A stretch of 64,000 bases of DNA. Origin: Thermoproteota archaeon (GTDB taxonomy: Archaea > Thermoproteota > EX4484-205 > JAAOZP01). A program made the translations under genes and the position numbers. Positions within the stretch are counted from its first letter, which is position 1, and each line of letters starts with the position of its first letter. Shown piece by piece: positions 2,893 to 50,070 of this stretch. The notes under the pieces are model-generated. The model was given only the letters and a program-made list of their open reading frames with translations, ran no database searches and had not been told where the DNA came from. Location: assembly GCA_049700215.1 (NCBI GenBank), contig JBNAVT010000006.1, positions 21,731 to 85,730 of the forward strand, given 5' to 3'.

Positions 2893-2902
2893 AGCGCGCG
2901 CT
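2893..2902. repeat. AG(CG)nCT palindromic junction motif (AGCGCGCGCT) at the left edge of the accessory region; a 12-mer copy follows at 2966-2977
   Basis: Read directly; exact copies also at 9573, 18333, 31113, 50061. Confidence 0.8.
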
Positions 2903-2932
2903 AAAGAGGTAGCCGAGATACGTGGAAATAGA

Positions 2933-4770
2933 GTGGTGAACAATGTAGATAAAGTTGCATTCATAAGCGCGCGCGCTGCTGAGAATGGGCTTATGCTTTT
3001 CGAAACCTACCTTGACGCTAGGAAAGATTATGGTAAGGAGATTGCTGACACCTTTTTAAACAGCGTCGCTAAGCATCCTGAGCTGTTAAGCCTCTGGAGC
3101 GGAGCCGTGGAGGGCGGGGTCGCAATATTCATCGGAGCATCCCATGAACCGGATAGGATATCTTTACCCGAGGGTATTCGCGAGAGTGTTTACCGCGTCA
3201 TCATACAGGATTCCGAGGGCGAGAACATCCTGATAGACGGCTTCAGGAGGATCGGCAGCGGGCAGGAGACAATCCGCTTCTCCTCTGAGGACACTGCCGG
3301 CAGGATAAGGGGAGGCGAGAAATACCTGGTTATTCTTAAGGCTGCAACCCCGGGTGACTTTCTCGAGAAATACCCGTCGAGGTTCGTTGAGGCAGCTGGT
3401 GGAAACGCCTATCTGGTGGATACTGAGAAAAGCAGGGTCGTCGAGGGATTGGTTGGGGAGCTGGATGAGTACGGGGGCTTCGCTTTCATCAGGTTCATGG
3501 TTACGGATGCTGACGGAAAACAGGTTGAGCTCAGGCTGACCCAGAGAGGGAGGCTGATGCTGATCTCCGGCGAAGGGAGAACCATGATAGGCGGGGTGGA
3601 GCTGAAAACCGTGTGGGACGATTCTGGAGGCGAGGTGGCTAGGCTCCTGTTCCTGCAGGAGGAGGGCTTAGACAGGTACGGTGGGATAATTGTTCTAAGC
3701 AGGAGGATTCCCTCGAGACCCGTGCTGCTCCTGAGCAACGAGGAGCACGTTATAGAGATAGAGCCAGACCAGAAATACCTTGATGTAAGCGGGATGCTTA
3801 AGAGAATCATTGGTGGCGAAGAATATTTGAGGCTCAGCAGGGAAATGGGCAGCGGGGACGCGGTCCTGGGGGTTGCTTACCTTAAGCAGGATGGTGAAAT
3901 AGATTCCGCGTGGACCCAGAGCGCTGACGCGGAGTTCAAGATTAAGGAGGCTGAGGACGTGCTCAGCCTAATTATCGTAAGGAAGAACGGGCTTAGCGCG
4001 GTGAGCCCAGACGGGGGTGTTAGAGCAGAGCTTTCCGGAGAGTACTTAAAGTTTTACGGCGTCAAGGGGATGGGCGAGGGAGCCGCGTTCAGGGTGAGCG
4101 AAGCGGGTACGGCCGATTCTCGAGATGACTCTGCCGAGCGGCGAGGCAATCCTGTTCCGAGTTGACGTAGCCGGAGACGGTAAAACAGTATCCTCGAAGC
4201 TGGCCTTAGCAGTAGAAAGGTATGCGCCTGATATAAACCTGGTTGAATACTACGGCGAGCTAAAGATTATGCTGAGCGAGCGGTCAAGCGTTCGAGTATA
4301 CTCTGAGAGACTTGATGGTCGTCGAGTATGAGGACAGCAGGGGAGTCCATAGAACTGCGGTTGGCTTAAGCGAACCCCTCCCGGATAAAGTGTTGAAGGA
4401 ACCTCAACACGTCGCCACTAAGCTGTTCACGAAAAGCCTCTTAGAAAAACTGGGATATAGGATTCTGGAGGAGGAAAAACACTTTGAATGGCAAGGTGAG
4501 GATGTATTCTTTGATTTTCATGCAGAAAAACCGGATGAAAAAGTGGCAGTAGTCGAATGTAAGCATGGTGATGAAACCGTCAGTAAAATAGATCAAGCCG
4601 ACAAATATTTTAGAATTGCTAGAGAGAACGGTTGGAGGCTGCTTTATAGTTTTCTGAATGCTCCTCAAACCTCTGAAGCTAAAGAGTTACTTAACCACTT
4701 AATTGAGCTTATGAGGCAGTATCCAGACACAGTGGAGGTTTTTATAAGTGGAGAGAAATATGGGAGGTAG
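2933..4770 (+). pseudogene. Frameshifted large protein ending in a PD-(D/E)xK nuclease domain; polymorphic-toxin-like
   Basis: Three overlapping ORFs (2933-4165, 4125-4331, 4312-4770) join through frameshifts near 4105-4125 and 4305-4312; last segment has FDFHAEK...VVECKHG. Confidence 0.6.
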
Positions 4771-4776
4771 GGAAGA

Positions 4777-5246
4777 ATGACTGAATACTGGATGGTGGTC
4801 AAGCCCGCGTCAAAAACCCCGAGAAAGATAAGAGAAAGGCTAAGAAGGACCCATACGTTTCATACTTGATGAGCAGGGTGGAGGTTTTGATTAGGAAGTG
4901 TCGAGACAACATAAGAGTTAACCCCAAAACCCCTGGGCCGGATTTAAAGATTTTCAGGCCCGTCGAAGTCTTGAATATTGAGGAGGTAAGGAACGAGCTG
5001 GAGGTACTGCTTACTAAAAATCTGTTTTCAAAGGATAATCCTGAGGATAGACGGATAGCGGAGGAAGATATCAAAAGAACTGGTCTGGCCATTGGGGAGG
5101 AAAAGATGGAGCCTGAATAACGTATCGATTCTCGCATCGATTTCATGAATGAGAATGCAAAGGCGTGGGGCAAGTTCTTAAAGGAAGTATATGACATTCA
5201 TAGGCAGTATAATGTTAAAATGTGGTTCCACATCGAGGGTGTATAA
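4777..5246 (+). pseudogene. Disrupted small protein directly after the nuclease domain; candidate immunity gene
   Basis: ATG at 4777, frameshift near 4795 into the 4866-5120 frame, in-frame TAA at 5118, then open reading to TAA at 5244-5246. Confidence 0.45.
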
Positions 5247-5433
5247 GTACGGGGGAGTAAGATAGTAGTATAGGAGTATTGCTCTACTTCTCTTTACTAA
5301 GATTCGTTAAACTCTCATGTCCGCTATATAATTCCGCCTCGCTACCTTCAATTCTCTTTGTCGAGATAACTACCTTAGCGTGCACCACATAAGCCCGATG
5401 CTACAAAGTCTCATAGCGTCGTTAGGCCAAGTA

Positions 5434-5883
5434 CTAACGCAGCAGGACGCTGTCAACCCCTTCTTTGACGGCTATTTCATGCACCTTCTCATCCCCCGTG
5501 TACAGCGTATCGGCTTCGACATGTTTCGCCGTAACCACTTGCAGCGCATCCGCCTCGCAAACATGGTACTCCTCTATAAGCCGCCAAGCCTGAGCTAGAA
5601 GCCTAGCTTTTAATGGGACAACAGTCAGCAGCCTCAGCCTAAGAAGCCTCAGTGTTTCGCCGATGAATTGGCTTCTAGCAGACGAATACCCCTGAGCATC
5701 AAGCCACCCCCTCTTATTGTACCTGTCAAGCACTCCCAGGACTTCACCTATGTTCCAGGAGGAGAACGAAACTGCAAGCTTCCCGATTAAAGCTCCCTCA
5801 TAGACTTTGCTAACCTCCTCGCTACCCGCTTCCTGCACATATCGTTTCACGGTTGCGCTTGAATCCAAGTAAACCACCAGCAC
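5434..5883 (-). CDS. vapC: VapC-family PIN-domain toxin
   Basis: VYLDSSATVKRY..E N-terminus, E at WNIGEV, ADALQV, LYTGDE acidic residues. Confidence 0.9.
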   Translation of the reverse strand: MLVVYLDSSATVKRYVQEAGSEEVSKVYEGALIGKLAVSFSSWNIGEVLGVLDRYNKRGWLDAQGYSSARSQFIGETLRLLRLRLLTVVPLKARLLAQAWRLIEEYHVCEADALQVVTAKHVEADTLYTGDEKVHEIAVKEGVDSVLLR

Positions 5884-5887
5884 AGCT

Positions 5888-6163
5888 CTATAACCCCCTG
5901 GTTTCCCTGAGCTCTCTCAACACCCTACCTGCATCCACTGGCACTAGAGGCCTAACAGGAGTAACCGTCAACGGCGACTCTACACAAGCGCCAAGCATCT
6001 TAGAAAGCTCTTCTGCAAACACTAAATCAACCACTTCCTCCTCAATCGCCTCCTCCACTGCCCGGCTCAGAGCCCTCAACCTTCCGCCCCCTCCAATCCT
6101 AGACTTGAACTCTTCCCACAATCTTCGATCGATGAGTATGCTTGTCTTCACCTTATCCCTCAA
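5888..6163 (-). CDS. Ribbon-helix-helix antitoxin (VapB-like)
   Basis: KVKTSILIDRRLWEEFK RHH start; directly upstream of the PIN gene. Confidence 0.8.
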   Translation of the reverse strand: MRDKVKTSILIDRRLWEEFKSRIGGGGRLRALSRAVEEAIEEEVVDLVFAEELSKMLGACVESPLTVTPVRPLVPVDAGRVLRELRETRGL

Positions 6164-6336
6164 TACCTTTCACCCTAATTACTCCATGGAGTAATACTTC
6201 TTTATAAGCCTTGCATCGTTAAACCATCTCATTAACAACACCAGTGGCGTGTGCTGAAATTAGTGAAACTTGCTGCACACTGATCTGTAGGAGGGTTTAT
6301 AAAGGGTGGTGGAAAACCAGGCTTATTTTCCTCCTC

Positions 6337-6735
6337 TTATTTTGTTACGTATTTTCTAGCAATTCCTTTAAGTTCATCATCGAATGTTAAAATCTCCGCT
6401 TTGTTGTTTTTAGCAATAGCTAGAAGCAGGCAATCATTAAAGGCACTTGCAGGCATCTTTTCCCTCTTCATAATTAGGAGAGCAAGCTTTACATCATCTT
6501 CTGTCTCGCAGTAAAAATTTACTCTAGCGTCAGAACGATACTCGGAAACTTTTTCCACCAGAAAATCCGGCGGGGCCTTCACCCTTTTCAACATTACCCA
6601 AACGTACTCCAGTAAAACAACCCTAGGCAATATTATAGTCTCAGACTCGTCGAAAAGCTTTGTCGCTAGCGTATGCCTCTCCGAATCCTCCAGTGTTTCA
6701 TCCACGAGTATGTTAGTGTCAAAGAGTTGCTTCAT
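6337..6735 (-). CDS. vapC: VapC-family PIN-domain toxin
   Basis: LFDTNILV, VLLEY, FNDCLLLA, ILTFDDEL motifs. Confidence 0.9.
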   Translation of the reverse strand: MKQLFDTNILVDETLEDSERHTLATKLFDESETIILPRVVLLEYVWVMLKRVKAPPDFLVEKVSEYRSDARVNFYCETEDDVKLALLIMKREKMPASAFNDCLLLAIAKNNKAEILTFDDELKGIARKYVTK

Positions 6736-6958
6736 CGAGCGACTCTTCCACCGTTTTCTCGATCTCCTCGACGGAAATCTTGAAGCCCGCCTTATAGGTA
6801 AGCCTTCTCTTCTTTACAGGGAAGAGTAAAAGCTTGTCGTTTTCTAGGACGAACTTAACGAGATCTCCCTCCTTTATGCCCAATAACTCTCTTATCCTGG
6901 AAGGAATGGTGACTTGAAAATTTCTAGTAACCTTGGCGGATTCCTCTACGGGATTCAT
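6719..6958 (-). CDS. AbrB/MazE/SpoVT-family antitoxin
   Basis: KVTRNFQVTIPSRIRELLGIKEGD signature; overlaps the PIN gene start. Confidence 0.9.
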   Translation of the reverse strand: MNPVEESAKVTRNFQVTIPSRIRELLGIKEGDLVKFVLENDKLLLFPVKKRRLTYKAGFKISVEEIEKTVEESLDEATL

Positions 6959-6997
6959 AGTAAAAAATTGGTATTAGTAGCATATAAATTTTTCTAG

Positions 6998-7007
6998 TAG
7001 CGCGCTA
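6998..7007. repeat. Palindromic junction motif TAGCGCGCTA just outside the AbrB-VapC promoter
   Basis: Read directly; a minus-strand TTTATA box lies at about 6983-6988. Confidence 0.65.
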
Positions 7008-7128
7008 AAATGCTTTTTCAATTCTCTTTACCAAGACTTTATAGAACAGAGCTTTACGCTCAGCCTGTCTTCCACAAACCTTCTGAAAGACGACTCCATT
7101 ATCCGCGCGAAGTTTCGCAGAGCTGGCT

Positions 7129-8040
7129 TCAGGTTTCAAACAACCCTGTGCTTAAATACTTCTCGCCGCTATCTGGCAGAACCGCGACTATTATCCTACC
7201 TTCCCCCAGCTCCCTCGCCTTTCTCAGCGCCACAAACATAATGGTCCCGGAACTCATCCCGATTAACAACCCCTCTTTCCTAGCTATTTCCCTAGCGACT
7301 CTGAAAACCTCCTTCTTATCCTCCTCTCCAATCTCAACTATCTCGTCGAACCATTCCTTCCTGAAAAGCTGAGTTGGATATTGCTCACCCGGGTTTCTCA
7401 ATCCTTGAATGCTTACACCAAGCCTTGGGGTGACGCCAACCACCTTTATCCCGGGGTTAAACTTTTTCACCCGCATCGACACTCCAACCCCGGTTCCAGC
7501 CGTCCCTATTCCTACCACAACCATATCGACTCTCCCATGGGTCTGCTCAAGGATCTCTCTCCCAGTAGTCTGGTAATGAGCCAAGATGTTTGCAGGATCC
7601 TTAAACTGATCCAGGTCAACGTATTTCTCAGGGTTTTCCCTAAGGATTTTCTGCTTCAACTCTATCGCGCCGCCAGTCCCCTTTTCGCCGGGTGAGAGAA
7701 CTAGGTCTGCGCCGTAAGCCCTTATTATCTTCCTCCTTTCAATGCTCACTGACTCGGGCATTACTATCGTGATCCTGTAGCCCTTGGCTGCTGCAAGCAT
7801 CGCCAGAGCTATCCCAGTGTTCCCGGAGGTCGCTTCAAGAATAATCTTGTCCCTGCTGAGCCTTCCCGAGGATTCCGCATACTCCATGAGGTAGAGCGCC
7901 ATCCTGTCTTTAACCGACCCGCCTATGTTGTACCATTCCAGCTTAGCGTATACCGTCGCGTCTCCAGGCTGAGTAAGCTTGTTTATCCTGACCATGGGGG
8001 TCCTCCCTATTAGGCCGGTGATGTCGCTTGCAACCTTCAT
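7129..8040 (-). CDS. PLP-dependent cysteine synthase family protein (CysK/CysM)
   Basis: GSVKDR PLP lysine, EATSGNTG, GIGTAGT, PDSGEKYLST. Confidence 0.93.
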   Translation of the reverse strand: MKVASDITGLIGRTPMVRINKLTQPGDATVYAKLEWYNIGGSVKDRMALYLMEYAESSGRLSRDKIILEATSGNTGIALAMLAAAKGYRITIVMPESVSIERRKIIRAYGADLVLSPGEKGTGGAIELKQKILRENPEKYVDLDQFKDPANILAHYQTTGREILEQTHGRVDMVVVGIGTAGTGVGVSMRVKKFNPGIKVVGVTPRLGVSIQGLRNPGEQYPTQLFRKEWFDEIVEIGEEDKKEVFRVAREIARKEGLLIGMSSGTIMFVALRKARELGEGRIIVAVLPDSGEKYLSTGLFET

Positions 8041-8284
8041 TTCTTGTAAAAGGCAGCTTTTATAATAGGGTTATATTAAGCTTTCCCACGAACAGTTAGG
8101 CGCTACTGGTTATTTTTTCTCCGGTTATTGAATATTGTGCTAATAAACCAATTGACGGTTTTAGCGCGCGAAGATTCTAGCATCAATTCTGTTTAAGATG
8201 CTTATTATCCTCTAACGATTCTTAGCAAATCCCACTTTACATCAAACTTTTGCGGTAAGTCCTGTCCATGTTTTTGATGCAGCC

Positions 8285-8296
8285 AGCGCGCGCGCT
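8285..8296. repeat. Palindromic junction motif AGCGCGCGCGCT overlapping the stop codon of 8295-8918; TAGCGCGCGA also at 8162-8171
   Basis: Read directly. Confidence 0.75.
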
Positions 8297-8918
8297 ATTT
8301 TTGAGAACTGATTTCCCTTAAGATCTTATCCTTAATCTTTCTGACTTCCCTGAGGTTTTTTATGCCGAGATACTCGAACTCGATCCTAGCAGACCTTATG
8401 ATCTCCAACAGCCTTCTTTCATACTCCTCAACTCTAAACTTTCTAACCAACTGTTTATAATGTTTCCAACTCACCTTACCGCTTTTAGCTAGGCAGATTA
8501 TGTCCACTCTGTCTTTCTGCCCCTTTACGCTGTTCCTTCTTTGCAGCTCAGCCTGCTGCTTCAATATTAGCAGTATCTCAGGCTTGGGAATCCTAAAATT
8601 TTCGATTCTAACCGTGTTTTGGAGGATCTCCTCTGGTGGAATAGTGAATTCCGAATAATATGGAACATAAATGTCTATAGATACTCCCTCCACTTCAGCC
8701 TGGTATTTTTTCAGAGACTCGTTCTTTTGAATTCCGATGCTTGTTTTAAGCCTGGTTAAATCCTTGAAATCAACTATGATGTCTACATCCTTGGATTTTA
8801 TGGCTTTCGTCAAAAAGTAGACGGCCCATCCGCCTATCAAAACGAAATCGATTTCCCTCCTTAGCTCCTGCAGTATTTTGAAGCTTCTGTCTATTGCTAT
8901 CTCATTCCAGAACTCCAT
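8295..8918 (-). CDS. Pol-beta-type nucleotidyltransferase (AbiEii-like toxin)
   Basis: FVLIGGWAV...SKDVD motif and C-terminal KDRVD, typical of AbiEii-type NTases. Confidence 0.7.
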   Translation of the reverse strand: MEFWNEIAIDRSFKILQELRREIDFVLIGGWAVYFLTKAIKSKDVDIIVDFKDLTRLKTSIGIQKNESLKKYQAEVEGVSIDIYVPYYSEFTIPPEEILQNTVRIENFRIPKPEILLILKQQAELQRRNSVKGQKDRVDIICLAKSGKVSWKHYKQLVRKFRVEEYERRLLEIIRSARIEFEYLGIKNLREVRKIKDKILREISSQK

Positions 8919-9489
8919 CTATAATCTCCTCTATTTCCCTAAGAAAATCCTTAGCATACCAAGACCTCAGGTTCCACAGGTCGACAAAGATCTGAGCAAT
9001 TGGAGCAATCTTAAACCTCAATAGATGCTCATCAAGATTTAAAACTATCAGGTTCGGCTTTAACCGCGTGTTCTCTTTCCCAAATCTTCTTTCAAAATCA
9101 CGCGCCACACCATAGACAACGACCTCACTGTACTCCGAGGGAACTCTTTTAAACCTGAATTTGAAAGCCGAGTACGCGGTGAAAACAGAATTCGCAGGAA
9201 CCTCGCTTTCGATTCTATCAACAGGCTCCTCAACATAGGTTTGATAAACAATCTCTTTCTCCAACCCTCTGACAGACGCCCAATAAAGCAAGATCTTCTT
9301 CGGATCCAGCACGGTAAAGCCAAGCCTCTTTTTCTCCAGAGCGTTCATTCGTTCCAACGGTCTTAGAGCATAGTTTACAGTGCTCAAGGACAGTTTACAG
9401 ACCCTGCTAAGCTCAAGCTGCTTGAAGACTCTGTTTCTTTCTTCAAGCACGCCATACAGGATTTCCCTATAAACACGTTCCTTTTTCAT
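8902..9489 (-). CDS. Winged-helix protein, AbiEi-like antitoxin/regulator
   Basis: N-terminal HTH (QLELSRVCKLSLSTVNYAL), C-terminal QIFVDLWNL; overlaps the NTase gene. Confidence 0.65.
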   Translation of the reverse strand: MKKERVYREILYGVLEERNRVFKQLELSRVCKLSLSTVNYALRPLERMNALEKKRLGFTVLDPKKILLYWASVRGLEKEIVYQTYVEEPVDRIESEVPANSVFTAYSAFKFRFKRVPSEYSEVVVYGVARDFERRFGKENTRLKPNLIVLNLDEHLLRFKIAPIAQIFVDLWNLRSWYAKDFLREIEEIIDGVLE

Positions 9490-9572
9490 ATTTCTGTTCT
9501 AAATGTATTTTCTTTATAAAGCTTTCGACAAAATTCGAAAATACTATGGAAACATTATTTTAAACGACAAGG

Positions 9573-9582
9573 AGCGCGCGCT
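9573..9582. repeat. Palindromic junction motif AGCGCGCGCT upstream of the AbiE-like pair; shorter copies at 9826-9833 and 9957-9964
   Basis: Read directly. Confidence 0.75.
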
Positions 9583-9979
9583 AGAGTTATTTTAGTTACG
9601 TATGCTTCTGAAGCTGCTGACGAACCGGTTCTCAGGAAGGCAGTGGGAAAATTCGGATTATCGCCTAGCCTACTTAAAAGACTCGTTTCTACGACTTTTT
9701 TACGATGTTATTTTCACTCAGAAGACTGCTAGGCAGAAGATCTTCCTGCCTCTCAAACACATCGCGGCGAAAACTGTTTATCGACTTGAATAAACTGCTT
9801 GTAAAACATTCCTCCTATGAACCCCCGCGCGCTGAAGGAAGCTCTTGGTACGGTTGAGGGCGAACCCACGGTAATCCTTTAAGTTTCGTCGATCCCGGGG
9901 AAAAGACCCGAGATGCAGGGTGGACAAATACATGATTTTCATAACCTTAAAAAGGCAGCGCGCACGGCACTAATTAAAA

Positions 9980-11752
9980 ATGAAAGAGAAAATTGGCGTA
10001 CGTGCTCTAATTTTAGTAGCTGTAATACAGCTTTCACTTTTCAGCTTTCTTGTCGCCTCAACGTTCGTGAGAGCAGCTAATGAAAACTATTCATATCCAA
10101 AGATAGTACCTGAGCCAAAATTTTTGAACTTCAGTGGAAGGTGGTTTCAGTTTAACGGGTTTAGCAATTTTCCTAGCTTTTTGGGAGAAGCCTTTAACGT
10201 TGCAAGAGGGAGCTGGAAGATCGTTAATACAACTCTACCAGGCTCGTTTACGAGTTATGTGAGAGTAAAAAACGGAATGGTTGAAGTTTCAGGAGACTTT
10301 AATGTTGCCTATGCTTCTATTCTACAATTAATAAGGCAAAGACTCGGCTACCTACCGGAAATTGAAATTGGCGAGTTTCTTAACTTTCAGTTTAGAGGCT
10401 TCCACTTAGATGTAGCAAGGGGAGGGGTTCCGAAAGTTGAGGCTTTCAAAGATCTTTTAAGATTTCTTTTCCTGCTTAAGTATAACTGCTTGGGGATTTA
10501 TCTTGAAGACCTTTTTCCATGGGAAAACTACCCTGAGATAGGTGCGGGCAGAGGTAAATTTACGAGAGAAGAGCTCTTAGAAATCATTAGCTATGGGGAA
10601 AAGCTTGGAATTGATGTTTTCCCCTCGCTTGAACTTTCAGGACATATGAATAACATACTTTCCATTCCAAGCCTTTCAAAGTATAGCTTAAACGGCAACA
10701 CTTTTCAACTGGACCTTAGCAGCAAAGAAGCAAGAAACCTTGGTTACAGTCTTTTAAACGAGGTGATTAATTTTTGGCCTTCTAGTTACGTTCACATTGG
10801 AGGCGATGAGAACCAGCTTAGCGGTGTCAGCGATGCGCCGAAGCTTTACGAAGGCTATTATGAGCACCTCATCGAGATTGTTAAAAGTAAAGGGAAAAAA
10901 CCAATAATGTGGGGCGATGTCTTACTTTGGACGTGGCCCAGCCTTATCGACAATGCAACTTGGAAAAACGTTGTTATTGCTAACTGGGACTATGGCACCG
11001 CTTCGAAGGAACACTTTGCAGGCAACATTCGATTTTTCAAAGAGAGAAACATAACTCAAATAATCTCTCCAGCCCTCTGGAACTGGAACGCATTTTACCC
11101 CTCATTCGATGCTGCTCTTATGAACCTAGATTCATCGTTAACTGCCGCCAGAGAAGAAAAGATCCCCGGGTTTCTGATAACTGCTTGGGGAGATGATGGG
11201 TGTGAGTGCTTACTCTCTTACCTCCATCCCTTAATACTAGTATCAATGGAGATTGCTGAAGGCAAAGGCAATTGGGATAAAATTTGGTTGGACAAGTGGA
11301 TTGCGTTAACAGGGGAAAGCAAAGAAGTTGCAGAAGTAAGAATAAGGCTGGGAAGCGCAATAATTTTTAGAAACTTAAAGCCCCTTCTCTTTAAGGGCAA
11401 TACCTTTGACAGCGAAGCGATTTCCCGTATGAAGAGTATTTTAGATAACATAAGCAGGGTTGATTTACCTGATGATTTATCCTTCATTAGAGCTATTTTA
11501 GGCGCAGCCATTAAGAGGAGCGAGGGGAAACTAACTCGAGAAGATATTTCAAACTTAGAAAAGGTATACATGAGTCTTTGGCTGAAAGAAAGAAAGCCAG
11601 ATGGCTTAGACTATAACTTGCAGAAGTTCCAAAACGCGGCTGAGCAGATAAGATTGGAAAACCTACGTCAAACAACAGTTTTGATTTCTATATTTATGAT
11701 AGTAGTGATTGCTCTTGCAATTGGATTAAAGTTGTTTTATTCAAGGCGGTAG
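9980..11752 (+). CDS. GH20 beta-N-acetylhexosaminidase with signal peptide and C-terminal membrane anchor
   Basis: RGFHLDVARG, HIGGDE catalytic motif, TAWGDDG; hydrophobic N- and C-termini. Confidence 0.88.
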   Translation: MKEKIGVRALILVAVIQLSLFSFLVASTFVRAANENYSYPKIVPEPKFLNFSGRWFQFNGFSNFPSFLGEAFNVARGSWKIVNTTLPGSFTSYVRVKNGMVEVSGDFNVAYASILQLIRQRLGYLPEIEIGEFLNFQFRGFHLDVARGGVPKVEAFKDLLRFLFLLKYNCLGIYLEDLFPWENYPEIGAGRGKFTREELLEIISYGEKLGIDVFPSLELSGHMNNILSIPSLSKYSLNGNTFQLDLSSKEARNLGYSLLNEVINFWPSSYVHIGGDENQLSGVSDAPKLYEGYYEHLIEIVKSKGKKPIMWGDVLLWTWPSLIDNATWKNVVIANWDYGTASKEHFAGNIRFFKERNITQIISPALWNWNAFYPSFDAALMNLDSSLTAAREEKIPGFLITAWGDDGCECLLSYLHPLILVSMEIAEGKGNWDKIWLDKWIALTGESKEVAEVRIRLGSAIIFRNLKPLLFKGNTFDSEAISRMKSILDNISRVDLPDDLSFIRAILGAAIKRSEGKLTREDISNLEKVYMSLWLKERKPDGLDYNLQKFQNAAEQIRLENLRQTTVLISIFMIVVIALAIGLKLFYSRR

Positions 11753-14523: not shown

Positions 14524-14712
14524 GCGTGAAAAGGTGAAAGAAGGTTGGGAGAATCAGTCCCAAAGGAAAGAGTTAAGCCTTCTGGCCTGAAAACATGGAT
14601 CATAATCTCAGCAATACTAATACCCCCAGTAGGATACTTCCTAAACCTGGTTATGCAGGGCTTCGGAGCCTGGTGGAACTACCCGTTAATATTCCCGTTG
14701 CCATTCTTCTGG
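14524..14712 (+). repeat. 189-bp exact direct repeat, copy 1 (RBS and 5' end of the paralogous genes); copy 2 at 18778-18966
   Basis: Base-by-base comparison, offset 4254. Confidence 0.9.
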
Positions 14713-17817: not shown

Positions 17818-18330
17818 CTATATACTTTTCCTCCTGTACTCCTCAATCAGCTTTTCATCAATCGGGTAAACACCGTGCTTCCTTGCCAGTTTCAACATTA
17901 GCAGGTAGTTCGACGGTTTCACAGCTGGATGAATACTGTTACTCGATGCTATGATGTGCCCTCCGCCTGGGGAGGCCTTTGCGATTGTTTCTTTTACTGC
18001 TTCTTCAACTTCCCACTAACTTCCGAAAGTAAGAACATAGGAGCAATCAACATTTCCAACAACAGCTATCCTTCTATCATATTTTTCCTTTACCTCTCCT
18101 ATATCCATTCCAGCTATTGGCTCTAGTGGGTCAAGGGCGTCGATTCCAGAGTCTATGATCATACCTATGATTGGCCAAAGGTTTCCGTCGGTATGTTTTA
18201 TAAACGGTATTCCATGCCTCTTCACGGTTTGAACAGCTCTTCTTAAGTAGGGTAACACAAACTCTTCAAACTGTTTCCCAGACATAAGCGGCGCCTTCCT
18301 GTTAGCATAGTCGTCTCCAGTCAACACCAC
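17818..18330 (-). pseudogene. C-terminal half of a uroporphyrinogen decarboxylase / MtaA-CmuA family protein
   Basis: GDDYA, KHTDGN, GNVDC, PGGGHIIASSNSIH motifs; internal TAG at 18016-18018; no 5' half, ends at the palindrome 18332-18343. Confidence 0.85.
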
Positions 18331-18331
18331 G

Positions 18332-18343
18332 TAGCGCGCGCTA
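18332..18343. repeat. Palindromic junction motif TAGCGCGCGCTA at the pseudogene breakpoint
   Basis: Read directly. Confidence 0.85.
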
Positions 18344-18735
18344 AGGTTCCTCTCTAGCCAGAGCCTTCAAAAATCTCTCTCTAGAATTCATGTTCGCAGC
18401 CTTCATCATCAAGTATAAAAACTTTTATAATGGTTCTATTTTCGATTCTGGACAATAATGCCTGCTTAAAAAGTCTCTTGAAGTTAAAACGGGCTTGAAA
18501 GGCAACGGCTTCTGCGAAACGTCACCATTTTTCAAGAAAACCGATTTGAAACTAAATTAGACTAATCGTTATTATTCGACCTTTTTATGAATACGAAAAG
18601 TCGAGGGGCTAGTGGAAATCCTGTTTTGTAACCACAGCCAGCTTTAACATATTATTGTCAACACATATCTCCTTTTCGCTTCCCGTAAGAAGCGGCTTGC
18701 TTCAGATTATCGACAAAAATATAATGGGGAAAAAC

Positions 18736-27314: not shown

Positions 27315-27477
27315 AGGTGCGTCGTTTATTTTTAATGAAGCTTAGAGGCATATTTATACATGTTGTCTTCACGTTCTTCAAGATGCGTACAGCTGGTTTC
27401 GCCAACCTCGAAGGTCAGCCTTATGCAGCATAAGGTAGGTGACTATGTTGTCGGAAAACAGTTGTAGCACGCGTGCT

Positions 27478-27784
27478 CCAAAACGGGTTCCAACAGGGGG
27501 GAAAGTCTATTTATGAAGTTCTGCATCTCGCCTGGAAGAGGTGCATAGACTGGTGTCGCTAACACAAGTATATCAGCCTCGCGCAGCTTGGGGTAAAGCA
27601 ACCGCATATCGTCAGAAATGATGCAATCCCCAGGCTTATCATACCTGCAAGAAAAGTCTCCGATGCAAGGCCTGATGTTGAGGCATTTTACATAGAAAAG
27701 CTCGACTGTCGCGCCTGCCTCCCTCATGCCGTTGAGAAACGGTTCCATGATCATTGTTGTGTCACTATTCTCCATGCGGGTGCG
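27478..27784 (-). pseudogene. Internal fragment of an iron-sulfur flavoprotein (flavodoxin family)
   Basis: IRPCIGDFSC...C..DDM..ADILVLATPVY; lacks the N-terminal xxINGS and the C-terminal half; bounded by palindromes 27466-27477 and 27785-27792. Confidence 0.8.
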
Positions 27785-28001
27785 AGCGCGCTGCTACTAC
27801 TTTGGTCAACCATTATCTCAAAGTCCGCTAAACCGTTTCCATATAAGTATTTGCATTATAAGCAACAAACGTAATTCATTTTGAACGTTTGAATCAACCT
27901 GTCTGCTTGAAAAACGGTGGGAGGAGCTTGTCCAGGAACGGCTTATTCACCTAGCTTTTCCTGAAAAAAGTTAAGTACTAGTTAAGGGGTTAAGTAATTG
28001 T

Positions 28002-31112: not shown

Positions 31113-31122
31113 AGCGCGCGCT
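31113..31122. repeat. Palindromic junction motif AGCGCGCGCT between the HEPN-MNT promoter and the next gene
   Basis: Read directly. Confidence 0.8.
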
Positions 31123-35182: not shown

Positions 35183-35223
35183 AGCGCGCGCCAGCTACGA
35201 CGGCTAATGCAGCACGTATCCCG

Positions 35224-37514: not shown

Positions 37515-37524
37515 AGCGCGCGCG
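37515..37524. repeat. Junction motif AGCGCGCGCG between two convergent genes
   Basis: Read directly. Confidence 0.7.
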
Positions 37525-37527
37525 GTC

Positions 37528-45281: not shown

Positions 45282-45335
45282 CTCCAGGCTTCCTGAGCAA
45301 AGTTTAAACACCGGCGCCATTATGAACCGTGAGGG

Positions 45336-46661: not shown

Positions 46662-46857
46662 GCTTGCCACCTGCTTTCAAAATTCCTCGACGCAGGATTC
46701 AACTTTTCACGAAGGCATGCAGCCTGCCCTGGCTGTAGAAGCCTTGATCTCTAGTGCACGCTAGAAGGGGGTCGGACGAATATCTAGTTCCATAAAAAGC
46801 TCTTTTAGAATTATGGAATCAAGGATATGAGGATGATTTGATTCTCGGTTTACGCTG

Positions 46858-48252
46858 TTAATATTTCTTGTGGGCGAGCTTGTTCCCAAAGTCCGCTAGG
46901 CTACTTTGGCGGTAGAAGCCCTCAATTTCCCCATAAACCCCATCGTATCCCGGCCTGATTCTCACCATGTCTCTTCTAACCAGGTCAACCACCTGGGCCA
47001 GCCTCTTGTCGCGTTTCGCAATCTCTTCAACAGGTGTTTCAATAAGCAGGCGGTACTCGCTTCCAAAATCTCTTACTAGACTGTAGTAAATGCTCCAGGT
47101 CTTCTTGGAACCCGGGCTCGTAGAGTAAGCGTAGCCTATTATTTCGGACAAGGGTATTAGGTGAACATAGTCTGCAGCGTCTCCAGGTCTAATCCCTTTA
47201 GGACGGTCGGCGAGTTCTTCTATATGCGTCTCCACACCGAGTGTAAGCTTCCTGCCGCAAACCGGGCATATCCCCTTGAGCTTGAAATACCTACGAGGCT
47301 CGACCGAAACCCCGCACCGTCGACATCCTGAGTTGTAGTACTTTCCGTACTCCGGATGGGTTTCTACAGTTAGAATTATTCTAGAATTTCCTTCCTTACG
47401 GATTGCGTTTATTATGCTCTTATAGCTCAATTCTTCTAGAAGCATCAGGTTGGCTTCTCTGCCAAGCCTCCAGGGATAGTAAGAGTGGGAATCACTGTTT
47501 GAAACCAGCGTGTAACGATCGTTGCTCGAAACCCTCCAGTTCATCAACGGATCCGAGGATAATCCTGTTTCGAGAGCATGTATCTCACTATACTTATCTT
47601 TGTAACAATCTTTCACACTATTATAACCGTGAACACCAAAAATGCTGAAATGGGGAGTCCACACGTGGGCCGGGAAAACCTCAATATCGTCTGAAACACT
47701 CTTTAAGATTTCCACGAGCTCGGGTGAGCTGCATTTCAACAAGGGTCTGCCGTCAGCACTCAGGTCTCCAATATGCGCCATAGCGTCACAAGCCTGTTTA
47801 ACGGTTTCGAAGTCGGGGAAGAGAACCACGTGGTGGATCCTTTTGACGGCGCTCCCGTCCTGGTAAACCGTGTTAACCTCGCCCTGGAGTATGAAAAGCG
47901 TGGCCTTCTCAGGGTTCTTTTCGCTCCTAAGCCTGTAGAGCCCGGGGCTCTCCTCTACAAGGCTCTTCTTAAGCTCCCTAAGCCACTTGGGATGCGTGCA
48001 GTCCCCGGTGCCAACTATGTTGAGACCTTTTAGCTTGGCGGAGAAAGCAATGTTCTCAAGAGTCATGTCTAGGCTTGTGGCCCTGCTATACTTCGAATGA
48101 ATATGCATGTCAACATAGTAGGAAGGCTTTTCCCTGAAGTCTCTGAGAAGCTGTTCAAGCCTCGTCAACACGGAGGGAGGTTTAAGAGATATGAAGGATG
48201 AGACTCGAGGGTTAAGGGTTAAAAGGCCGCTCATCCTTAAGAATGACAACAT
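46858..48252 (-). CDS. endoQ: Endonuclease Q family (PHP domain plus zinc finger)
   Basis: DMHIHSKYSRATS, GTGDCTHP, PAHVWTP, ETGLSSD, SNSDSHS, LGRE, CxxC..CPVC, PGYDGVYG; true start likely near 48171. Confidence 0.9.
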   Translation of the reverse strand: MLSFLRMSGLLTLNPRVSSFISLKPPSVLTRLEQLLRDFREKPSYYVDMHIHSKYSRATSLDMTLENIAFSAKLKGLNIVGTGDCTHPKWLRELKKSLVEESPGLYRLRSEKNPEKATLFILQGEVNTVYQDGSAVKRIHHVVLFPDFETVKQACDAMAHIGDLSADGRPLLKCSSPELVEILKSVSDDIEVFPAHVWTPHFSIFGVHGYNSVKDCYKDKYSEIHALETGLSSDPLMNWRVSSNDRYTLVSNSDSHSYYPWRLGREANLMLLEELSYKSIINAIRKEGNSRIILTVETHPEYGKYYNSGCRRCGVSVEPRRYFKLKGICPVCGRKLTLGVETHIEELADRPKGIRPGDAADYVHLIPLSEIIGYAYSTSPGSKKTWSIYYSLVRDFGSEYRLLIETPVEEIAKRDKRLAQVVDLVRRDMVRIRPGYDGVYGEIEGFYRQSSLADFGNKLAHKKY

Positions 48253-48399
48253 AGTATGATCCTACGGCCAGTTGTTAAAAGGCTTTTAAGCGGGTTCGCC
48301 TCATCCACTCCGAGCCTCTTCTTCAGCACCCTGCCTACATAAACGTTTGTCAAGCGCGCGTAAGTATTTTCATGTAGATTTCTCTTTCCAATTTCCTCC

Positions 48400-48966
48400 T
48401 TAACTCCGCATCTTTGAGTAAATAACTTCGCCCTCTTTGAAAATCCTCGCTATTTAAATCGTATCCGCCTTGTTTAACGCCTGAGGTTAAAAACCTTGCA
48501 CAAGCTAAAAACATTACTCCGAGAATAACTAAAGCTATTGACAGACATGCAAGGTCTCTTTCAAAACCCCAAAACGTGAGTACTATTTCCCCTTCTATGA
48601 ATACGGCTCCTTTATTCCTTAAAACAACATAATACTCTCCTCTAACCGGTATTTCAAGATTAACAAAGCTTTCCTCTCTAAATTCCTTAATAGGGTGGCA
48701 TTTCCAGTCTCCATGAATAGTTCGTAATTATGTTTATCGAGGATCAGGATGCTGATTTCCCTACTGCCTAAAGAGGTAGCTATCCTAACATTTCTAGGGG
48801 GCCAGATTTGAGGCAAAAATAGGGGAGAGGTGGAGTTCTCAGGAAGACCAACCCTAGTAGCGAAGACGTAGGGAGAGGGGCCCCGCAAGACAGTTAAAAT
48901 GGAAATACCTAAGCCGATCATCAGCAGCACTATTCCGACATATCGGAGTTTAGAGGGCTTAATCAA
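48400..48966 (-). pseudogene. Two-TM membrane protein, frameshifted
   Basis: ORF 48619-48966 continues in another frame from about 48675 (SFVNLEIPVRGEYYVVL...TM) to a stop at 48400. Confidence 0.55.
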
Positions 48967-49699
48967 GCTGTAACACCTCCCTGAAAAAGAAGTATGAGAA
49001 GATAAGCAGTATCAAGGGTAATAGGAGGTGAATTAGGATTATGCCCCAAGTATAGGCCGTTAATTCCACTAAAAGAATTAGCTTTAACAGGAGATACGTA
49101 GGGTCTAGGTTCGGAGGATTTGTAGGGCTTATCGATAAGGACACGTCAAGTAGGAGGATGCTTTCGAGAAAATAGAGTGCAATTGCTACTATCATGGCCC
49201 CGAATCTACTTCTAAATATCATGCTCATTAGAATGCTGGTTGAGGCGAAAAGAAGTAGGACGATCGCATCTACGAGGATAATAGTCAGAATGGGAATAGG
49301 AGGTATCGATGCGGTTACAATCCATACTGATAGAATTGTGGAGACTAAATCCGCTAGCAGTATTGCCGAGAAATTCGTTAGAAACTTAGCTATGAACAAA
49401 GCCTCCTTCTTAACTGGGAGAGTGAACTCGCCCATTAAAACATCTTGCTCAATGTCTCTGCCAAAGGAGTTTGCAAACGTCAGAATCGTTATCAGGCATA
49501 AGAATGGGATTTTAAAGCTCCCTAGGCTAGAGAGAGCTATGTCAAACGCTGATTCTTTAACTTCCATTGGAGCTGCGCTCCCAGGGCCTCCTAGGATTAG
49601 CAGCATGAGTATTAAACCCACGTATGGGGCCGACCAGATTTTCTCAAGCTCAAACCTGATGGTTTCGACGATCGGTTTATCGATTAACTTAGCAACCAT
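48959..49699 (-). CDS. ABC-2 type exporter permease
   Basis: RFELEK start, FGRDIEQD...TLPVKK..LFIAKF motif, about six TM helices. Confidence 0.8.
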   Translation of the reverse strand: MVAKLIDKPIVETIRFELEKIWSAPYVGLILMLLILGGPGSAAPMEVKESAFDIALSSLGSFKIPFLCLITILTFANSFGRDIEQDVLMGEFTLPVKKEALFIAKFLTNFSAILLADLVSTILSVWIVTASIPPIPILTIILVDAIVLLLFASTSILMSMIFRSRFGAMIVAIALYFLESILLLDVSLSISPTNPPNLDPTYLLLKLILLVELTAYTWGIILIHLLLPLILLIFSYFFFREVLQLD

Positions 49700-50060
49700 A
49701 ATTCTTTCTCTCCAAAGCTTTTACGAAAACATTCTCCAAGCTTCTCCCAAGCCGGTGGAAGCTAACGAGCTCACAACCAGTTCGGCTAATTAACCTTGGG
49801 ACCTCGCAGCGTATAGCCGAGGCGTCCCCCTTGACGTATAGGGTATTGTTTTTCAACTTAACCATTAAACCTAAGCCGCGCAAAGCAGTTGCAAGCTCAT
49901 CTGGCTTAGTGACCTTTAACGCATAGACCATGGATGAGTATCTTTCTAAAAGGTTTTCCACATAATCCTGCTCAATAGCCTTTCCCCCATGCATCAGGCA
50001 AACCCATGAGCAAGCCTTCTGCAACTCTGGCAGAACATGGCTGGATATGAGGAAGCCTAT
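49689..50060 (-). pseudogene. C-terminal remnant of an ABC exporter ATPase
   Basis: Frame reads IGFLISSHVLPELQKAC (H-loop) from 50060 and ends SLENVFV; Walker A/B and signature absent; abuts AGCGCGCGCT. Confidence 0.85.
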
Positions 50061-50070
50061 AGCGCGCGCT
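50061..50070. repeat. Palindromic junction motif AGCGCGCGCT at the ATPase breakpoint; partner AGCGCGCGT at 48353-48361
   Basis: Read directly. Confidence 0.85.

Follow-up and report, generated by a model that had tools for sequence, protein, structure and literature searches.

The palindrome AG(CG)nCT found in the genome described here is best explained as a fixed self-complementary filler, TA(GC)4TA, that is put in where DNA ends are joined in one archaeal subclade. We assign this reading a probability of about 0.6, and the enzyme or template remains unidentified. Comparison with relatives shows that the motif lies exactly at joints and that unrearranged orthologous DNA lacks it, that these joints lose flanking nucleotides without making a target duplication, and that the copies are young, lineage-specific and decaying by transitions. 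More than 150 motif-marked places of DNA loss, insertion or re-joining point to an undescribed route of DNA mending or shuffling. In the literature searched, no precedent was found for a single constant end-joining filler.

Abundance and consensus of the motif

The window, i.e. the whole 64-kb stretch of DNA that was analyzed, belongs to a 2.09-Mb genome (G000). The host is a hot-spring archaeon. In this genome AGCGCGCGCT is the top 10-mer, with 118 copies against 1.1 expected. Counts of AG(CG)nCT are 372, 53, 118, 33, 2 and 2 for n = 1 to 6, and an order-3 Markov model predicts 520, 24, 1.1 and 0.05 for n = 1 to 4. By these figures the word is enriched about 100-fold or more at n ≥ 3 (155 copies in total) and is not enriched at n = 1. 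Nine control words of similar composition, eight of them palindromic, occur 0–2 times each, the exception being (CG)5 with 24 copies. The base preceding the motif is T in 93 of the 155 copies and the base following it is A in 87 (about 28% in non-coding DNA). The consensus in full reads T-A-(GC)4-T-A; beyond TA no conserved flanks surround the copies in G000.

According to our own crude gene calls, which cover 87% of the genome, 106 of the n ≥ 3 copies fall between genes and 11 straddle a gene edge, so that 117 of 155 lie outside or across called genes. Among the 38 genic copies, 26 lie no more than 60 nt from a gene end, and the n = 1 word AGCGCT is genic in 325 of 372 cases. The motif occurs in spacers of every orientation and is slightly denser in convergent and tandem ones. 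Copies with one mismatch mostly carry C>T or G>A. The n ≥ 3 expansion is limited to one subclade within one genus; 9 of the 16 other genomes of the genus have the motif, at different places.

Motif copies at joints genome-wide

G000 was compared with five relatives, of which G002 is the closest at about 91% identity. The genome-wide breakpoint test used 660 kb of G002, which is 30% of that genome, and 39 strict motif sites were informative. G002 alignments run across only four of these but across 2539 of the 4841 non-coding positions used as controls (P = 3e-8), and an alignment end lies within 3 nt of eight sites, against 72 controls (1.5%; P = 1e-7). For 27 of the 39 the nearest alignment end is over 40 nt away; these sites are in DNA that cannot be aligned, so that their events are beyond reconstruction. 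All four spanned sites are G000-specific replacements of 6–55 nt. The motif either substitutes for 6–55 nt or occupies places where 122–1750 nt are gone, in many cases within genes found intact elsewhere. No target duplication was seen at the motif joints compared with relatives, and orthologous DNA without rearrangement did not contain the motif.

Clear indels between G000 and G002 were defined by at most 25 nt on one side and at least 100 nt on the other. In 6 of 21 such indels a CG run makes up the whole short side, with no run at either end of the long allele, and CG-run indels arise in both genomes; of non-coding 40-nt windows picked at random, 3.2% contain a CG run. Not every seam is marked, since 12 of the 21 have no CG run. 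The G000 locus matching the PALP gene site of G002 also has none, and a 733-nt insert in contig C27 carries the motif at one border only. Ends of paralogous segments fall within 5 nt of a run in 11 of 287 cases, against 0.19% at random, and a CG run also lies where 152 bp are deleted within a paralogous pseudogene. In a broken cas1 gene, model positions 74–173 are absent exactly at GCGCGCGC. The motif is also carried by an IS607-type resolvase remnant and a TnpB fragment.

Where CG runs are spanned by G000–G002 alignments, 4 of 17 are shared; all four are coding and none has the A..T flanks. No canonical motif site common to both genomes was found in aligned DNA, which argues against a function. 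At C29:7192 an ancestral TA on both sides adjoins a bare GCGCGCGC, and at C4:12286 of G002 an ancestral GC overlaps the run. Microhomology at unit borders was judged by eye at a handful of joints, without statistics. The polarity of deletion and insertion rests on outgroups only at 18333 and 35183 of the window and on parsimony elsewhere, and the bridging of joints described below rests on Logan contigs, not on raw reads.

Motif copies in the window

The initial annotation, made from sequence alone, described the copies in Table 1 as scars or crossover sites at the seams of an accessory mosaic. All seven exact copies that it listed were confirmed, and its near copies were read in the sequence, with the start of one moved from 6998 to 6999 and that of another from 8162 to 8163. 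Its chance expectation of 0.06 for one 10-mer also held: AGCGCGCGCT has five matches against 0.06 expected, a number reached in 0 of 100 shuffles, and AGCGCGCGCGCT has two against 0.00. The enrichment is, as shown above, genome-wide, and the window is not a special concentration of the motif, because its seven strict copies compare with 4.75 predicted by the density in the genome as a whole (P = 0.20). The absence of copies from the core blocks 1–2815 and 50371–63735, which had been cited in support, carries no weight, since only 1.2 copies would be expected there (P(0) = 0.30). The term accessory mosaic was an overstatement as well; positions 12123–64000 are collinear with a single G002 contig, with local indels as the only differences.

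Table 1. Copies and near copies of AG(CG)nCT in the 64-kb window
Sequence	Position (nt)	Context
AGCGCGCGCT	2893..2902	inside 162-nt joint between end of L2 gene block and 5′-truncated gene
AGCGCGCGCGCT	2966..2977	1–3 nt ahead of resumed gene homology; gene cut on 5′ side
AGCGCGCT (n = 2)	6999..7006	left of imported PALP-gene block (7112–8085)
TAGCGCGCGAA (degenerate)	8163..8173	left edge of block 8192–9573; homology to G007:C48 from 8192
AGCGCGCGCGCT	8285..8296	overlaps stop codon of ORF 8295–8918(−); small substitution event
AGCGCGCGCT	9573..9582	right end of block 8192–9573
CGCGCGCT	9826..9833	inherited copy, left edge of block 9827–10932
CAGCGCGCAC	9957	near copy
AGCGCGCGCT(A)	18333..18342	joint of 498-bp deletion within gene
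AGCGCGCT (n = 2)	27785..27792	just upstream of FMN-reductase fragment (27443–27775, −)
AGCGCGCGCT	31113..31122	right border of variable segment 27317–31146
AAGCGCGCAT	34657	near copy
AGCGCGCGCC	35183..35192	joint of ~560 bp deletion within gene
AGCGCGCGCGG	37515..37525	small G000-specific insertion in collinear non-coding stretch
AGCGCGCGTA (degenerate)	48353..48361	near left border of 1.9-kb insert (48168–50101)
AGCGCGCGCT	50061..50070	near right border of 1.9-kb insert (48168–50101)

All seven exact copies lie within or border DNA for which relatives have no equivalent at that location, and four are at most 3 nt from the start or stop of homology; the corresponding sites in unrearranged relatives have no CG run. 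Around the 2893 copy, homology to G002 and G008 stops at 2816/2827 and restarts at 2979, and, motif aside, the 162 nt before 2979 match nothing in the loci of the relatives or in the rest of G000. At 2966 the frame of G002 and G008 runs on upstream (GGAGACGATTCTGAGAATGGGC), and the window has the motif instead of the upstream part. A contig from dataset X1 spans this region (2729–3496) with 0 differences. The PALP block is 81–84% identical to every near relative, where it has another genomic location. The 8285 site reads GCAGCCAGTCCTTATTTTTGAG in G007 and GCAGCCAGCGCGCGCGCTATTTTTGAG in the window, and G006 and G011 also lack the motif; X1 bridges this joint, and so does an independent contig of X2 (8000–8360, 0 differences). 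Homology to G007, G006 and G011 ends at the 9573 motif, with unrelated sequence downstream. At the 9826 block edge G002 and G008 carry AGCGCGCT with diverged flanks, and to the left of it the window has a 4.6-kb insertion (5246–9826).

Of the two intragenic deletions, the one at 18333 removed about 500 bp that are present in G002, G006 and G010 without a CG run at either end, leaving a 104-aa remnant of a frame that is open over 365 aa in G002 and over 363 aa in G006. X1 crosses this joint, as does an independent contig of X2 (18105–18621, 0 differences). The gene at 35183 is open in G009 (277 aa) and G002 (285 aa), and homology stops 1 nt before the run and restarts 2 nt after it. The FMN-reductase fragment, a 110-aa ORF, matches only profile positions 13–97 of 152, and segment 27317–31146 has no counterpart at the corresponding place in G002. 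Homology to G002, G007 and G008 begins 24–30 nt rightward of the 31113 copy, at the stop of gene 31151–32863, and none of the three has the motif at the equivalent place. The 37515 copy is spanned by alignments to G002, G007, G006 and G009, with no CG run at the aligned G002 place (C6 59246). Where the window has the 1.9-kb insert, four relatives have just 112–132 nt; homology to G002, G009, G006 and G007 restarts 31–35 nt to the right of the 50061 copy. An extra run that had been missed, TGCGCGCGCA at 35391, is located within coding DNA and is present in G006 too; we regard it as ordinary.

These comparisons uphold the initial annotation's view that genes are truncated at the motif (18333, 35183, and the gene whose homology starts at 2979). 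Alignment breaks are associated with the motif, and intact homologs lack it at the cut position (18333, 35183, 2966). The core inference of a scar at joints rather than an attC-type site is supported, although neither the enzyme nor the mechanism is identified. Two limits apply: the flavoprotein fragment is marked at one end (27785), not both, and, as the unmarked indels show, seams exist without the motif. A proposed URO-D-like half gene was not confirmed; the 410-aa ORF 2933–4165 has no Pfam family.

Proposed mechanism and search for the enzyme

In the favored mechanism a break would first lose anything from a few to thousands of nucleotides by resection. The unit would then be added, possibly as the same short tail (...AGCGC-3′) on both ends, or alternatively as a single duplex or templated unit set between the ends, after which the joint would be sealed. 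Both routes would yield a palindrome because the unit is its own complement. The overlap of unit and flank would be 0–3 nt, and n = 2, 3 or 4 would reflect the overlap register or later slippage. Since the filler ends up between the joined ends, it marks small replacements and deletions whose size ranges from 100 nt to several kb, as well as the edges of segments that were inserted, translocated or duplicated. Some large deletions could instead stem from later recombination between two copies, and one-step addition cannot be distinguished from insertion followed by such recombination.

The search for an enzyme covered C5 methylase, reverse transcriptase, Ku, PrimPol, Y1 transposase and tyrosine recombinase, and none was found. 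Ku and reverse transcriptase are missing from all 17 genomes of the genus. The C5 methylase (PF00145) is absent from G000 and 14 others, including every motif-rich genome, and is present only in G001 and G004, both without the motif. There is no match to PF00589, PF13358 or PF01797, the sole resolvase found is broken, and DDE_Tnp_1 gives one partial match and DDE_3 none. TnpB, LAGLIDADG and a nuclease-like family have distributions that do not follow the motif. Neither a parent transposon in G000 (repeats are few, and none adjoins the motif at contig ends) nor a free unit or template was found.

Alternative explanations

The most serious rival is a two-step one, in which a tiny non-autonomous element of 10–12 nt is inserted by an unknown enzyme with small target loss, and larger deletions, inversions or translocations follow by recombination, or by cutting and re-ligation, between copies, leaving one copy per joint. 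It would account for the small replacements without large rearrangement (the four spanned sites and 8285), for copies 60–400 nt apart (85 pairs), for the inherited 9826 copy re-used as an insertion point, and for a lineage-specific spread resembling a mobile family; the palindromic GC clusters found in yeast mitochondria count as mobile even though their mechanism is unknown (PMC4478555). However, there is no target duplication, every small event loses 6–55 nt, close pairs are no more frequent than random non-coding positions predict (83), each deletion within a conserved gene would need two earlier insertions in that gene, and no recombinase or transposase candidate was found. We consider it unlikely. 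Still less probable is the footprint of a cut-and-paste transposon with AGCGC...GCGCT terminal inverted repeats and a TA target, whose excision leaves TA + GCGC + GCGC + TA. Footprints of TA transposons, like fusion scars of telomere resolvases, are palindromic remnants at joints, and TA-GCGCGCGC-TA looks like those of the Tc1/mariner/IS630 type. The enriched T and A at −1 and +1 and the ancestral TA pair at C29:7192 fit. Against it, the searches turned up neither a parent element nor a DDE_3 transposase or tyrosine recombinase, 155 excisions without a surviving element are implausible, and flanks were resected by 6 to 1750 nt yet the unit is intact, which is the wrong order for a footprint-bearing end. 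Absence of a parent is not proven, because assembly of a metagenome-assembled genome can collapse multi-copy elements.

A palindrome of the HIP1 or REP type, kept by methyltransferase-linked repair bias or by an intergenic function (termination, RNA stability, protein binding), is slightly less probable again. The breakpoint link would then be incidental, arising because genomes differ in their intergenic DNA. Like HIP1 of cyanobacteria (GCGATCGC), the archaeal motif is a short perfect palindrome and by far the most over-represented word of its genome; like REP/BIME sequences with RAYT and the 18-nt REP-like palindrome of Caldithrix, it is intergenic, high in copy number and without conserved flanks past TA (PMC5317091), and it occurs in all spacer orientations. 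HIP1 is found in genes and spacers alike and is tied to methyltransferases whose site is inside it; the HIP1 papers found concern CGATCG methylation. REPs are imperfect 20–40-nt stem-loops moved by Y1 transposases. The archaeal motif differs in its preference for gene edges and spacers, in having no loop, and in lacking C5 methylase and Y1_Tnp/RAYT matches. Its copies originate with indels, not by substitution, and occur at joints inside broken genes; position-matched non-coding controls show no breakpoint link, and a 10-nt perfect palindrome would presumably be unable to form a useful RNA hairpin. An artefact of assembly, binning or library preparation (chimeric joins, linker contamination) can be almost entirely dismissed. 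In its favor are the 12 of 155 sites that lie 200 nt or less from a contig end, where 2.5 would be expected, and the reliance on Logan contigs. Yet contigs of a second sample, from a different study, cross the 8285 and 18333 joints without differences, the motif is found at different places in other genomes of the genus, the 9826 copy is inherited at the same block edge with diverged flanks, and decayed copies are biased to transitions. A 10–12-nt repeat would also be too short for assembly mis-joins.

Comparison with known systems

Filler in alternative end joining (SD-MMEJ) resembles the archaeal motif in its extra nucleotides exactly at the joint, flanking DNA loss and short overlaps, and its snap-back synthesis can yield palindromic inserts (PMC2943611; bioRxiv 10.1101/2022.03.14.484287). 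Known fillers are copied from nearby sequence and vary per joint, whereas the archaeal unit is the same at more than 150 joints. GC clusters of fungal mitochondria, such as Saccharomyces GC42, are about 30–50 nt long with a putative AG target-site duplication (PMC4478555). Like the archaeal motif they are short GC-rich palindromes strewn over AT-richer non-coding DNA, and in both systems copies are gained and lost quickly among close relatives, with bursts in particular lineages, and no enzyme is known (PMC4478555). The archaeal unit differs in that it is only 10–12 nt long, makes no duplication, loses flanking DNA, and sits at deletion and insertion joints, including those inside genes.

Abundance, consensus and genomic context of the motif

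The palindrome AG(CG)nCT with n>=3 is strongly enriched throughout the source genome (G000; 2.09 Mb, 85 contigs, 94.6% complete, with the window at G000:C6:21731-85730). The motif occurs 372, 53, 118, 33, 2 and 2 times for n=1 to n=6, against order-3 Markov expectations of 520, 24, 1.1 and 0.05 for n=1, 2, 3 and 4. The n=3 form, AGCGCGCGCT (118 observed versus 1.1 expected), is the commonest 10-mer of the genome, and control palindromes of like composition occur only 0-2 times each. Simple microsatellite slippage is argued against by the fact that n=3 is the mode and exceeds n=2. Among the 155 strict copies (n>=3), T is found at -1 in 93 and A at +1 in 87, compared with about 28% each in non-coding DNA, which gives TA(GC)4TA as the full consensus. 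No conservation beyond these T/A flanks was detected among the G000 copies. The unit, TAGCGCGCGCTA, is a perfect palindrome of 10-12 nt.

Gene context was judged with a crude annotation of our own, in which 1977 genes make up 87.1% of G000. Strict copies are intergenic in 106 of 155 cases and overlap a gene edge in 11, so that 117 lie outside genes or across their edges; of the 38 genic copies, 26 have a gene end no more than 60 nt away. Like background, the short form AGCGCT (n=1) mostly falls inside genes (325 of 372). Spacers holding the motif are divergent, convergent and tandem alike, which excludes a role as promoter element. Twelve of the 155 copies have a contig end within 200 nt where 2.5 are expected, and a clustering test showed site pairs to be no closer together than random non-coding positions.

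An initial annotation had located seven exact copies in the window, all of which are present where it placed them, and near copies that proved real after small coordinate corrections. Its view of the window as a special place failed, because 7 strict copies are not exceptional against the 4.75 expected from genome density (P=0.20). The absence of the motif from two presumed core blocks, which had been considered telling, is likewise unremarkable (P=0.30). The proposed accessory mosaic held only in part, as most of it is a collinear region with local damage.

Joints in the window and broken genes

Comparison with other genomes of the genus (G001-G016) places many copies at sites of DNA rearrangement. 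Window segments 1-2816, 2979-4835 and 9827-10932 are found on a single contig of the closest relative, G002 (about 91% identity), and 12123-64000 is collinear with another G002 contig apart from local indels. The joints are listed in the table together with motif-bearing gene remnants and two multi-copy families discussed below.

Coordinates of window joints, motif-bearing gene remnants and candidate enzyme families
Feature	Location	Description	Compared with
Joint	window 2966	Gene homology begins 1-3 nt past motif; upstream part of gene lost	G002, G008
Joint	window 8285	G007 AGTCCTTA replaced by window AGCGCGCGCGCTA; both flanks aligned	G007
Joint	window 9573	Homology ends at motif	three relatives
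Joint	window 9826	Inherited copy; AGCGCGCT at same block edge in relatives; 4.6 kb inserted beside it in window	G002, G008
Joint	window 18333	AGCGCGCGCT(A) replaces 498 bp; 104-aa remnant kept	G002, G006, G010
Joint	window 31113	Motif 24-35 nt inside border of 3.8-kb segment absent from relatives	relatives
Joint	window 35183	GCGCGCGC replaces ~560 bp of 277/285-aa gene	G009 / G002
Joint	window 50061	Motif 24-35 nt inside border of 1.9-kb segment absent from relatives	relatives
cas1 remnant	G000:C9:1-640	Pfam Cas_Cas1 1-73 and 174-277 in one 199-aa open frame	
IS607-like remnant	G000:C19:10071-11562	Resolvase N-terminal half, 4 TAG stops, adjoining TnpB fragments	
PD-(D/E)xK-like large family	G000:C42:2-2977, C8:2-2707 and fragments	Weak SfsA match at C-terminus	
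LAGLIDADG_3 family, free-standing	G000:C37:13331-14245 and C8:69182-70096	Multi-copy in near subclade	

At 18333, the ~500 bp missing from the window are present in G002, G006 and G010 without a CG run at either end, and lie inside an open frame of 365 aa (G002) or 363 aa (G006). Relatives are likewise free of CG runs at both ends of the segments lost at window 35183 and at C5:43516, C29:7192 and C16:10769. Copies carried by G002 itself behave alike: one cuts a 570-aa gene that both the window and G007 keep intact, and two come after stop codons, with unrelated DNA beyond them.

In the cas1 remnant, Cas_Cas1 positions 74-173 are missing exactly at GCGCGCGC (C9 274-281), which stands in their place, and two more runs are located upstream (3-10) and overlapping the 3' end (592-599). 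The remnant of an IS607-type resolvase contains AGCGCGCGCT at C19 11369, and a TnpB fragment also carries the motif. The cargo of the window inserts is ordinary, comprising PIN, an MNT-type nucleotidyltransferase, FMN-reductase fragments and an ABC-2 fragment. No source for the 63 nt at 2903-2965 was found in G000 or at the relatives' loci, and an Rfam search of the window returned no RNA family.

Association with breakpoints

Breakpoint statistics rest on one relative, G002, of which 660 kb (30%) was compared; 474 kb could be aligned at 90.75% identity. Thirty-nine strict G000 sites were informative, being inside an alignment or within 1 kb of one. Only 4 of these are spanned by an alignment, compared with 2539 of 4841 control non-coding positions (P=3e-8), and an alignment end lies within 3 nt of 8 of the 39, compared with 72 of 4841 controls (P=1e-7). 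All four spanned sites are G000-specific, 19, ~20, 6 and ~55 nt of G002 sequence having been replaced by (T)AGCGCGCGCT(A). These small events are all replacements with a loss of 6-55 nt, and none shows a target-site duplication with intact flanks.

Larger events give the same picture. A CG run of at least 7 nt is present in either genome in 35 of 62 gaps between consecutive collinear alignments, against a background of 3.2% of random non-coding 40-nt windows. Of 21 clear indels (at most 25 nt on one side, at least 100 nt on the other), the run forms the entire short side in six, belongs to the long side in three (at its edge in one, inside it in two) and is missing from twelve. The six run-only joints occur in both genomes and lost 122-1750 nt, the long allele having no run at its ends; none of these deletion joints shows a duplication. 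Within G000, 11 of 287 ends of paralogous segments are within 5 nt of a run versus 0.19% at random, and a paralogous pseudogene has an internal deletion of 152 bp at a CG run. Unalignable DNA holds 27 of the 39 informative sites, where events cannot be reconstructed. One insert has the motif at a single border only, and outgroups to assign polarity (deletion or insertion) were available for two joints only.

These results show that the palindromic scar at DNA joints is real, occurs genome-wide and is lineage-specific. The initial annotation had inferred as much for the window, and this is supported, since breaks in synteny coincide with the motif more than with control positions and unrearranged alleles lack the CG run. 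The mechanism is inferred, and the enzyme remains unidentified.

Distribution, age and reality of the joints

Within the genus, the 10-mer is found 118 times in G000, 88 in G008, 70 in G002, 33 in G009, 32 in G007, 18 in G006 and 16 in G010, with lower counts in G013 (6; a 70%-complete genome), G011 (3) and G014 (3), and none in seven genomes. The motif-rich genomes are 84-95% identical to the ribosomal-protein block of the window and the empty ones 73-78%, but G011, at 87% identity and 92% completeness, has only 3 copies. The TA-flanked 12-mer was also counted in 401 genomes of the phylum and proved frequent only in the subclade, with 35, 28, 26, 14, 11, 9 and 4 copies. Outside it, the top counts were 12, 5, 4 and 4; the 12-mer was absent from 375 genomes of the scan. 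The genome with 12 also scores 4 for a control pattern.

G000-G002 alignments span 17 CG runs, of which 13 are G000-specific. The four shared ones are all coding and without A..T flanks, hence no canonical copy in the aligned part is older than the split at ~91% identity. One-mismatch copies are frequent, mostly with C>T or G>A at central CpGs, and their inner positions show 71 transitions against 37 transversions, an excess which indicates decay of copies.

That the joints could be assembly chimeras is countered at the level of contigs, raw reads not having been used. Contigs of sequencing run X1, probably from the source sample, bridge 2893+2966, 8162-9826 and 18333. Run X2 (another sample and study, 31% of sampled words) yielded contigs that bridge 8162+8285 (8000-8360) and 18333 (18105-18621) with 0 differences. 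Alternative joins were not sought beyond one second X1 contig at window 8173-8232, again only at contig level; it has a depth of 6.9, a 5-nt insertion, two base differences and other flanks on both sides. It suggests that another strain or relative is present in the sample.

Searches beyond the phylum found the 14-mer in 36 viral contigs, once each and mostly in GC-rich ones, and in at least 119 metagenome stretches, with five of these loci also containing the 12-mer. Viral contigs L096 and L113/L116 have 2-3 TA(GC)nTA copies and no similarity to G000; those of L096 are in a repeated context. Together with metagenome contigs L154, L205 and L158, they are unrelated moderate-GC contigs with 2-3 copies each, and such a palindrome may occur in other lineages.

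Search for an enzyme

No enzyme was identified among the families searched. The C5 methylase family PF00145 is found only in the motif-free G001 and G004, while G000 and the remaining 14 genomes gave no match; N4/N6 methylases were outside the search. Ku (PF02735) was detected in 0 of 17 genomes. G000 has no match to reverse transcriptase (PF00078), Prim-Pol (PF09250), IS630-type DDE_3 or, at 94.6% completeness, Y1 (RAYT) transposase (PF01797). Tyrosine recombinases (Phage_integrase, PF00589) are also missing from G000, yet were found in all 14 control genomes; in the 94.6%-complete assembly no Xer-type recombinase was detected. The only serine recombinase match (PF00239) is a remnant with 4 stop codons that itself carries the motif. 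Broken or partial finds in G000 are the resolvase, cas1 and one partial DDE_Tnp_1.

Three families were considered and rejected since they do not track the motif. TnpB (PF07282) is missing from G002, which has 70 motifs, whereas G011 has 3 motifs and 6 TnpB. The motif-poor G011 yields 14 matches to a multi-copy 991-aa family whose C-terminus is PD-(D/E)xK-like; this family occurs genus-wide, with frames up to ~2400 aa in relatives and many fragments at contig ends. A multi-copy LAGLIDADG-like family of ~304-305 aa has 11 matches in G011 and up to 16 in G006, with many broken copies. Its members are likely mobile homing-endonuclease genes unrelated to motif abundance. The remaining multi-copy proteins of G000 are surface-protein-like or without a family.

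Possible mechanisms

We favor, with a confidence of about 0.6, an inferred mechanism in which the motif is put in during end joining after resection. A constant unit, loss of flanking DNA, the lack of duplication and absence from the unrearranged allele fit a filler placed while resected ends are joined. A break would be resected, after which the unit is placed as the ends are joined, and either the same tail on both ends or one self-complementary duplex would produce a palindrome. An overlap of the unit with its flank by 1-3 nt would account for the variable n and for T/A flanks that are only ~60% conserved. A handful of overlaps seen by eye, without statistics, are TA on both sides at C29:7192, GC at G002 C4:12286 and AG/TA at window 8285. 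Against this reading, 12 of the 21 clear indels are motif-free, and the G000 locus corresponding to the PALP enzyme gene of G002 has no motif.

Other mechanisms can be considered. Template switching, with another copy serving in trans as the template for the abundant and very stable GC unit, requires no special enzyme and is possible; the unit would then be self-propagating. A two-step process of insertion followed by recombination between copies cannot be distinguished from one-step addition, and its first step would again be a break-plus-filler event. A recombinase site has to pre-exist, which the motif does not fit: relatives have no CG run at the ends of the deleted segments, and of the two recombinase families searched, tyrosine recombinases gave no match and serine recombinases one broken remnant. 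The footprint of a cut-and-paste transposon does not fit either, because it would be resected first and no parent element was found. Repeats are few and none adjoins the motif, DDE_3 is not found and DDE_Tnp_1 is represented by one partial match, with the reservation that repeats may have collapsed in the metagenome-assembled genome. A HIP1-like mutational bias does not fit, given that new copies come together with indels and that C5 methylase is lacking.

A bolder version of the end-joining reading, on which we would not yet rely, is an unknown dedicated end-healing pathway that tags any free end with a fixed self-complementary ...TAGCGC. A protein- or nucleic-acid-templated activity would append the tag, and the ends would pair via a heat-stable GC-only overlap before ligation. 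If true, a countable tag at each repaired break would be a natural recorder of double-strand-break repair and DNA capture.

Comparison with known systems

The motif and HIP1 are both short palindromes far above expectation genome-wide. HIP1 differs in being found in coding and non-coding DNA alike and in originating by substitution, whereas all four alignable copies of the motif are indel replacements; moreover, the C5 methyltransferase PF00145 is absent from the motif genomes. REP/BIME elements are imperfect stem-loops of 20-40 nt, which the motif is not, and no Y1 (RAYT) transposase gene was found in G000. The target-site duplication with intact flanks of mobile GC clusters and MITE-like elements is not seen. 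Neither are sites in both partners or a cognate recombinase, as in attC, dif or shufflon-like systems, nor the parent element and transposase of a transposon footprint. Ku-dependent NHEJ requires a Ku gene, and none of the 17 genomes matched that family. In alt-EJ/SD-MMEJ fillers, extra nucleotides are located exactly at the joint together with flank loss, as for the motif. However, such filler is copied from nearby sequence and joint-specific, whereas the motif is a single unit at all joints.

The nearest analogues in the literature seen are the mobile, palindromic GC clusters in mitochondria of yeast (PMC4478555), a REP-like 18-mer of Caldithrix (PMC5317091) and a palindromic microsatellite element of Fusarium mitochondria. 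No description of the motif or its behavior was found in the literature searched. Occurrences of the exact 10-mer that were examined concerned primers, vectors or unrelated topics, and GCGCGCGC as an archaeal palindrome matched only work on absent words. Queries for highly iterated palindromes in archaea returned cyanobacterial genomes and HIP1 methylation, and horizontal transfer inferred from oligomer frequencies. The description of Brockarchaeota makes no mention of palindromes, repeats, transposition, rearrangements or pseudogenes.

If the favored reading is correct, DNA repair or reshuffling in one archaeal lineage leaves a constant, recognizable tag. DNA joining of this kind would be new, with no Ku, reverse transcriptase, PrimPol or recombinase detected. 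It would provide a countable record of structural mutation, about one third of the clear indels being tagged in the compared part of species at 91% identity, and account for lost genes and mosaic islands in these uncultured archaea of hot springs. As a tagging activity, the addition of a fixed self-complementary linker at breaks would also hold practical interest. If instead a rival reading with a mobile palindrome is correct, its 10-12 nt would be the smallest mobile DNA described.

Other features of the region

The PALP-enzyme gene at window 7129-8040 is 81-84% identical to that of every near relative, while adjoining collinear blocks are 90-95% identical to G002, and its context differs genome by genome. 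It was likely imported or replaced. A donor scar was sought at the G000 locus matching the PALP site of G002, and no CG run was present there.

The L3, L4 and L2 proteins of the window have archaeal-type Pfam matches. The ribosomal row L3-L4-(86-aa ORF)-L2 stops after L2, and since the DNA beyond differs among G000, G002 and G008 (window 2816 onward; G002:C18:4218; G008:C19), the usual operon continuation is missing. Two paralogous 669-aa genes at window 14545-16554 and 18799-20808 are 2.2 kb apart and share ~68% DNA identity; the pair is also found in G002, G006, G007 and G010.
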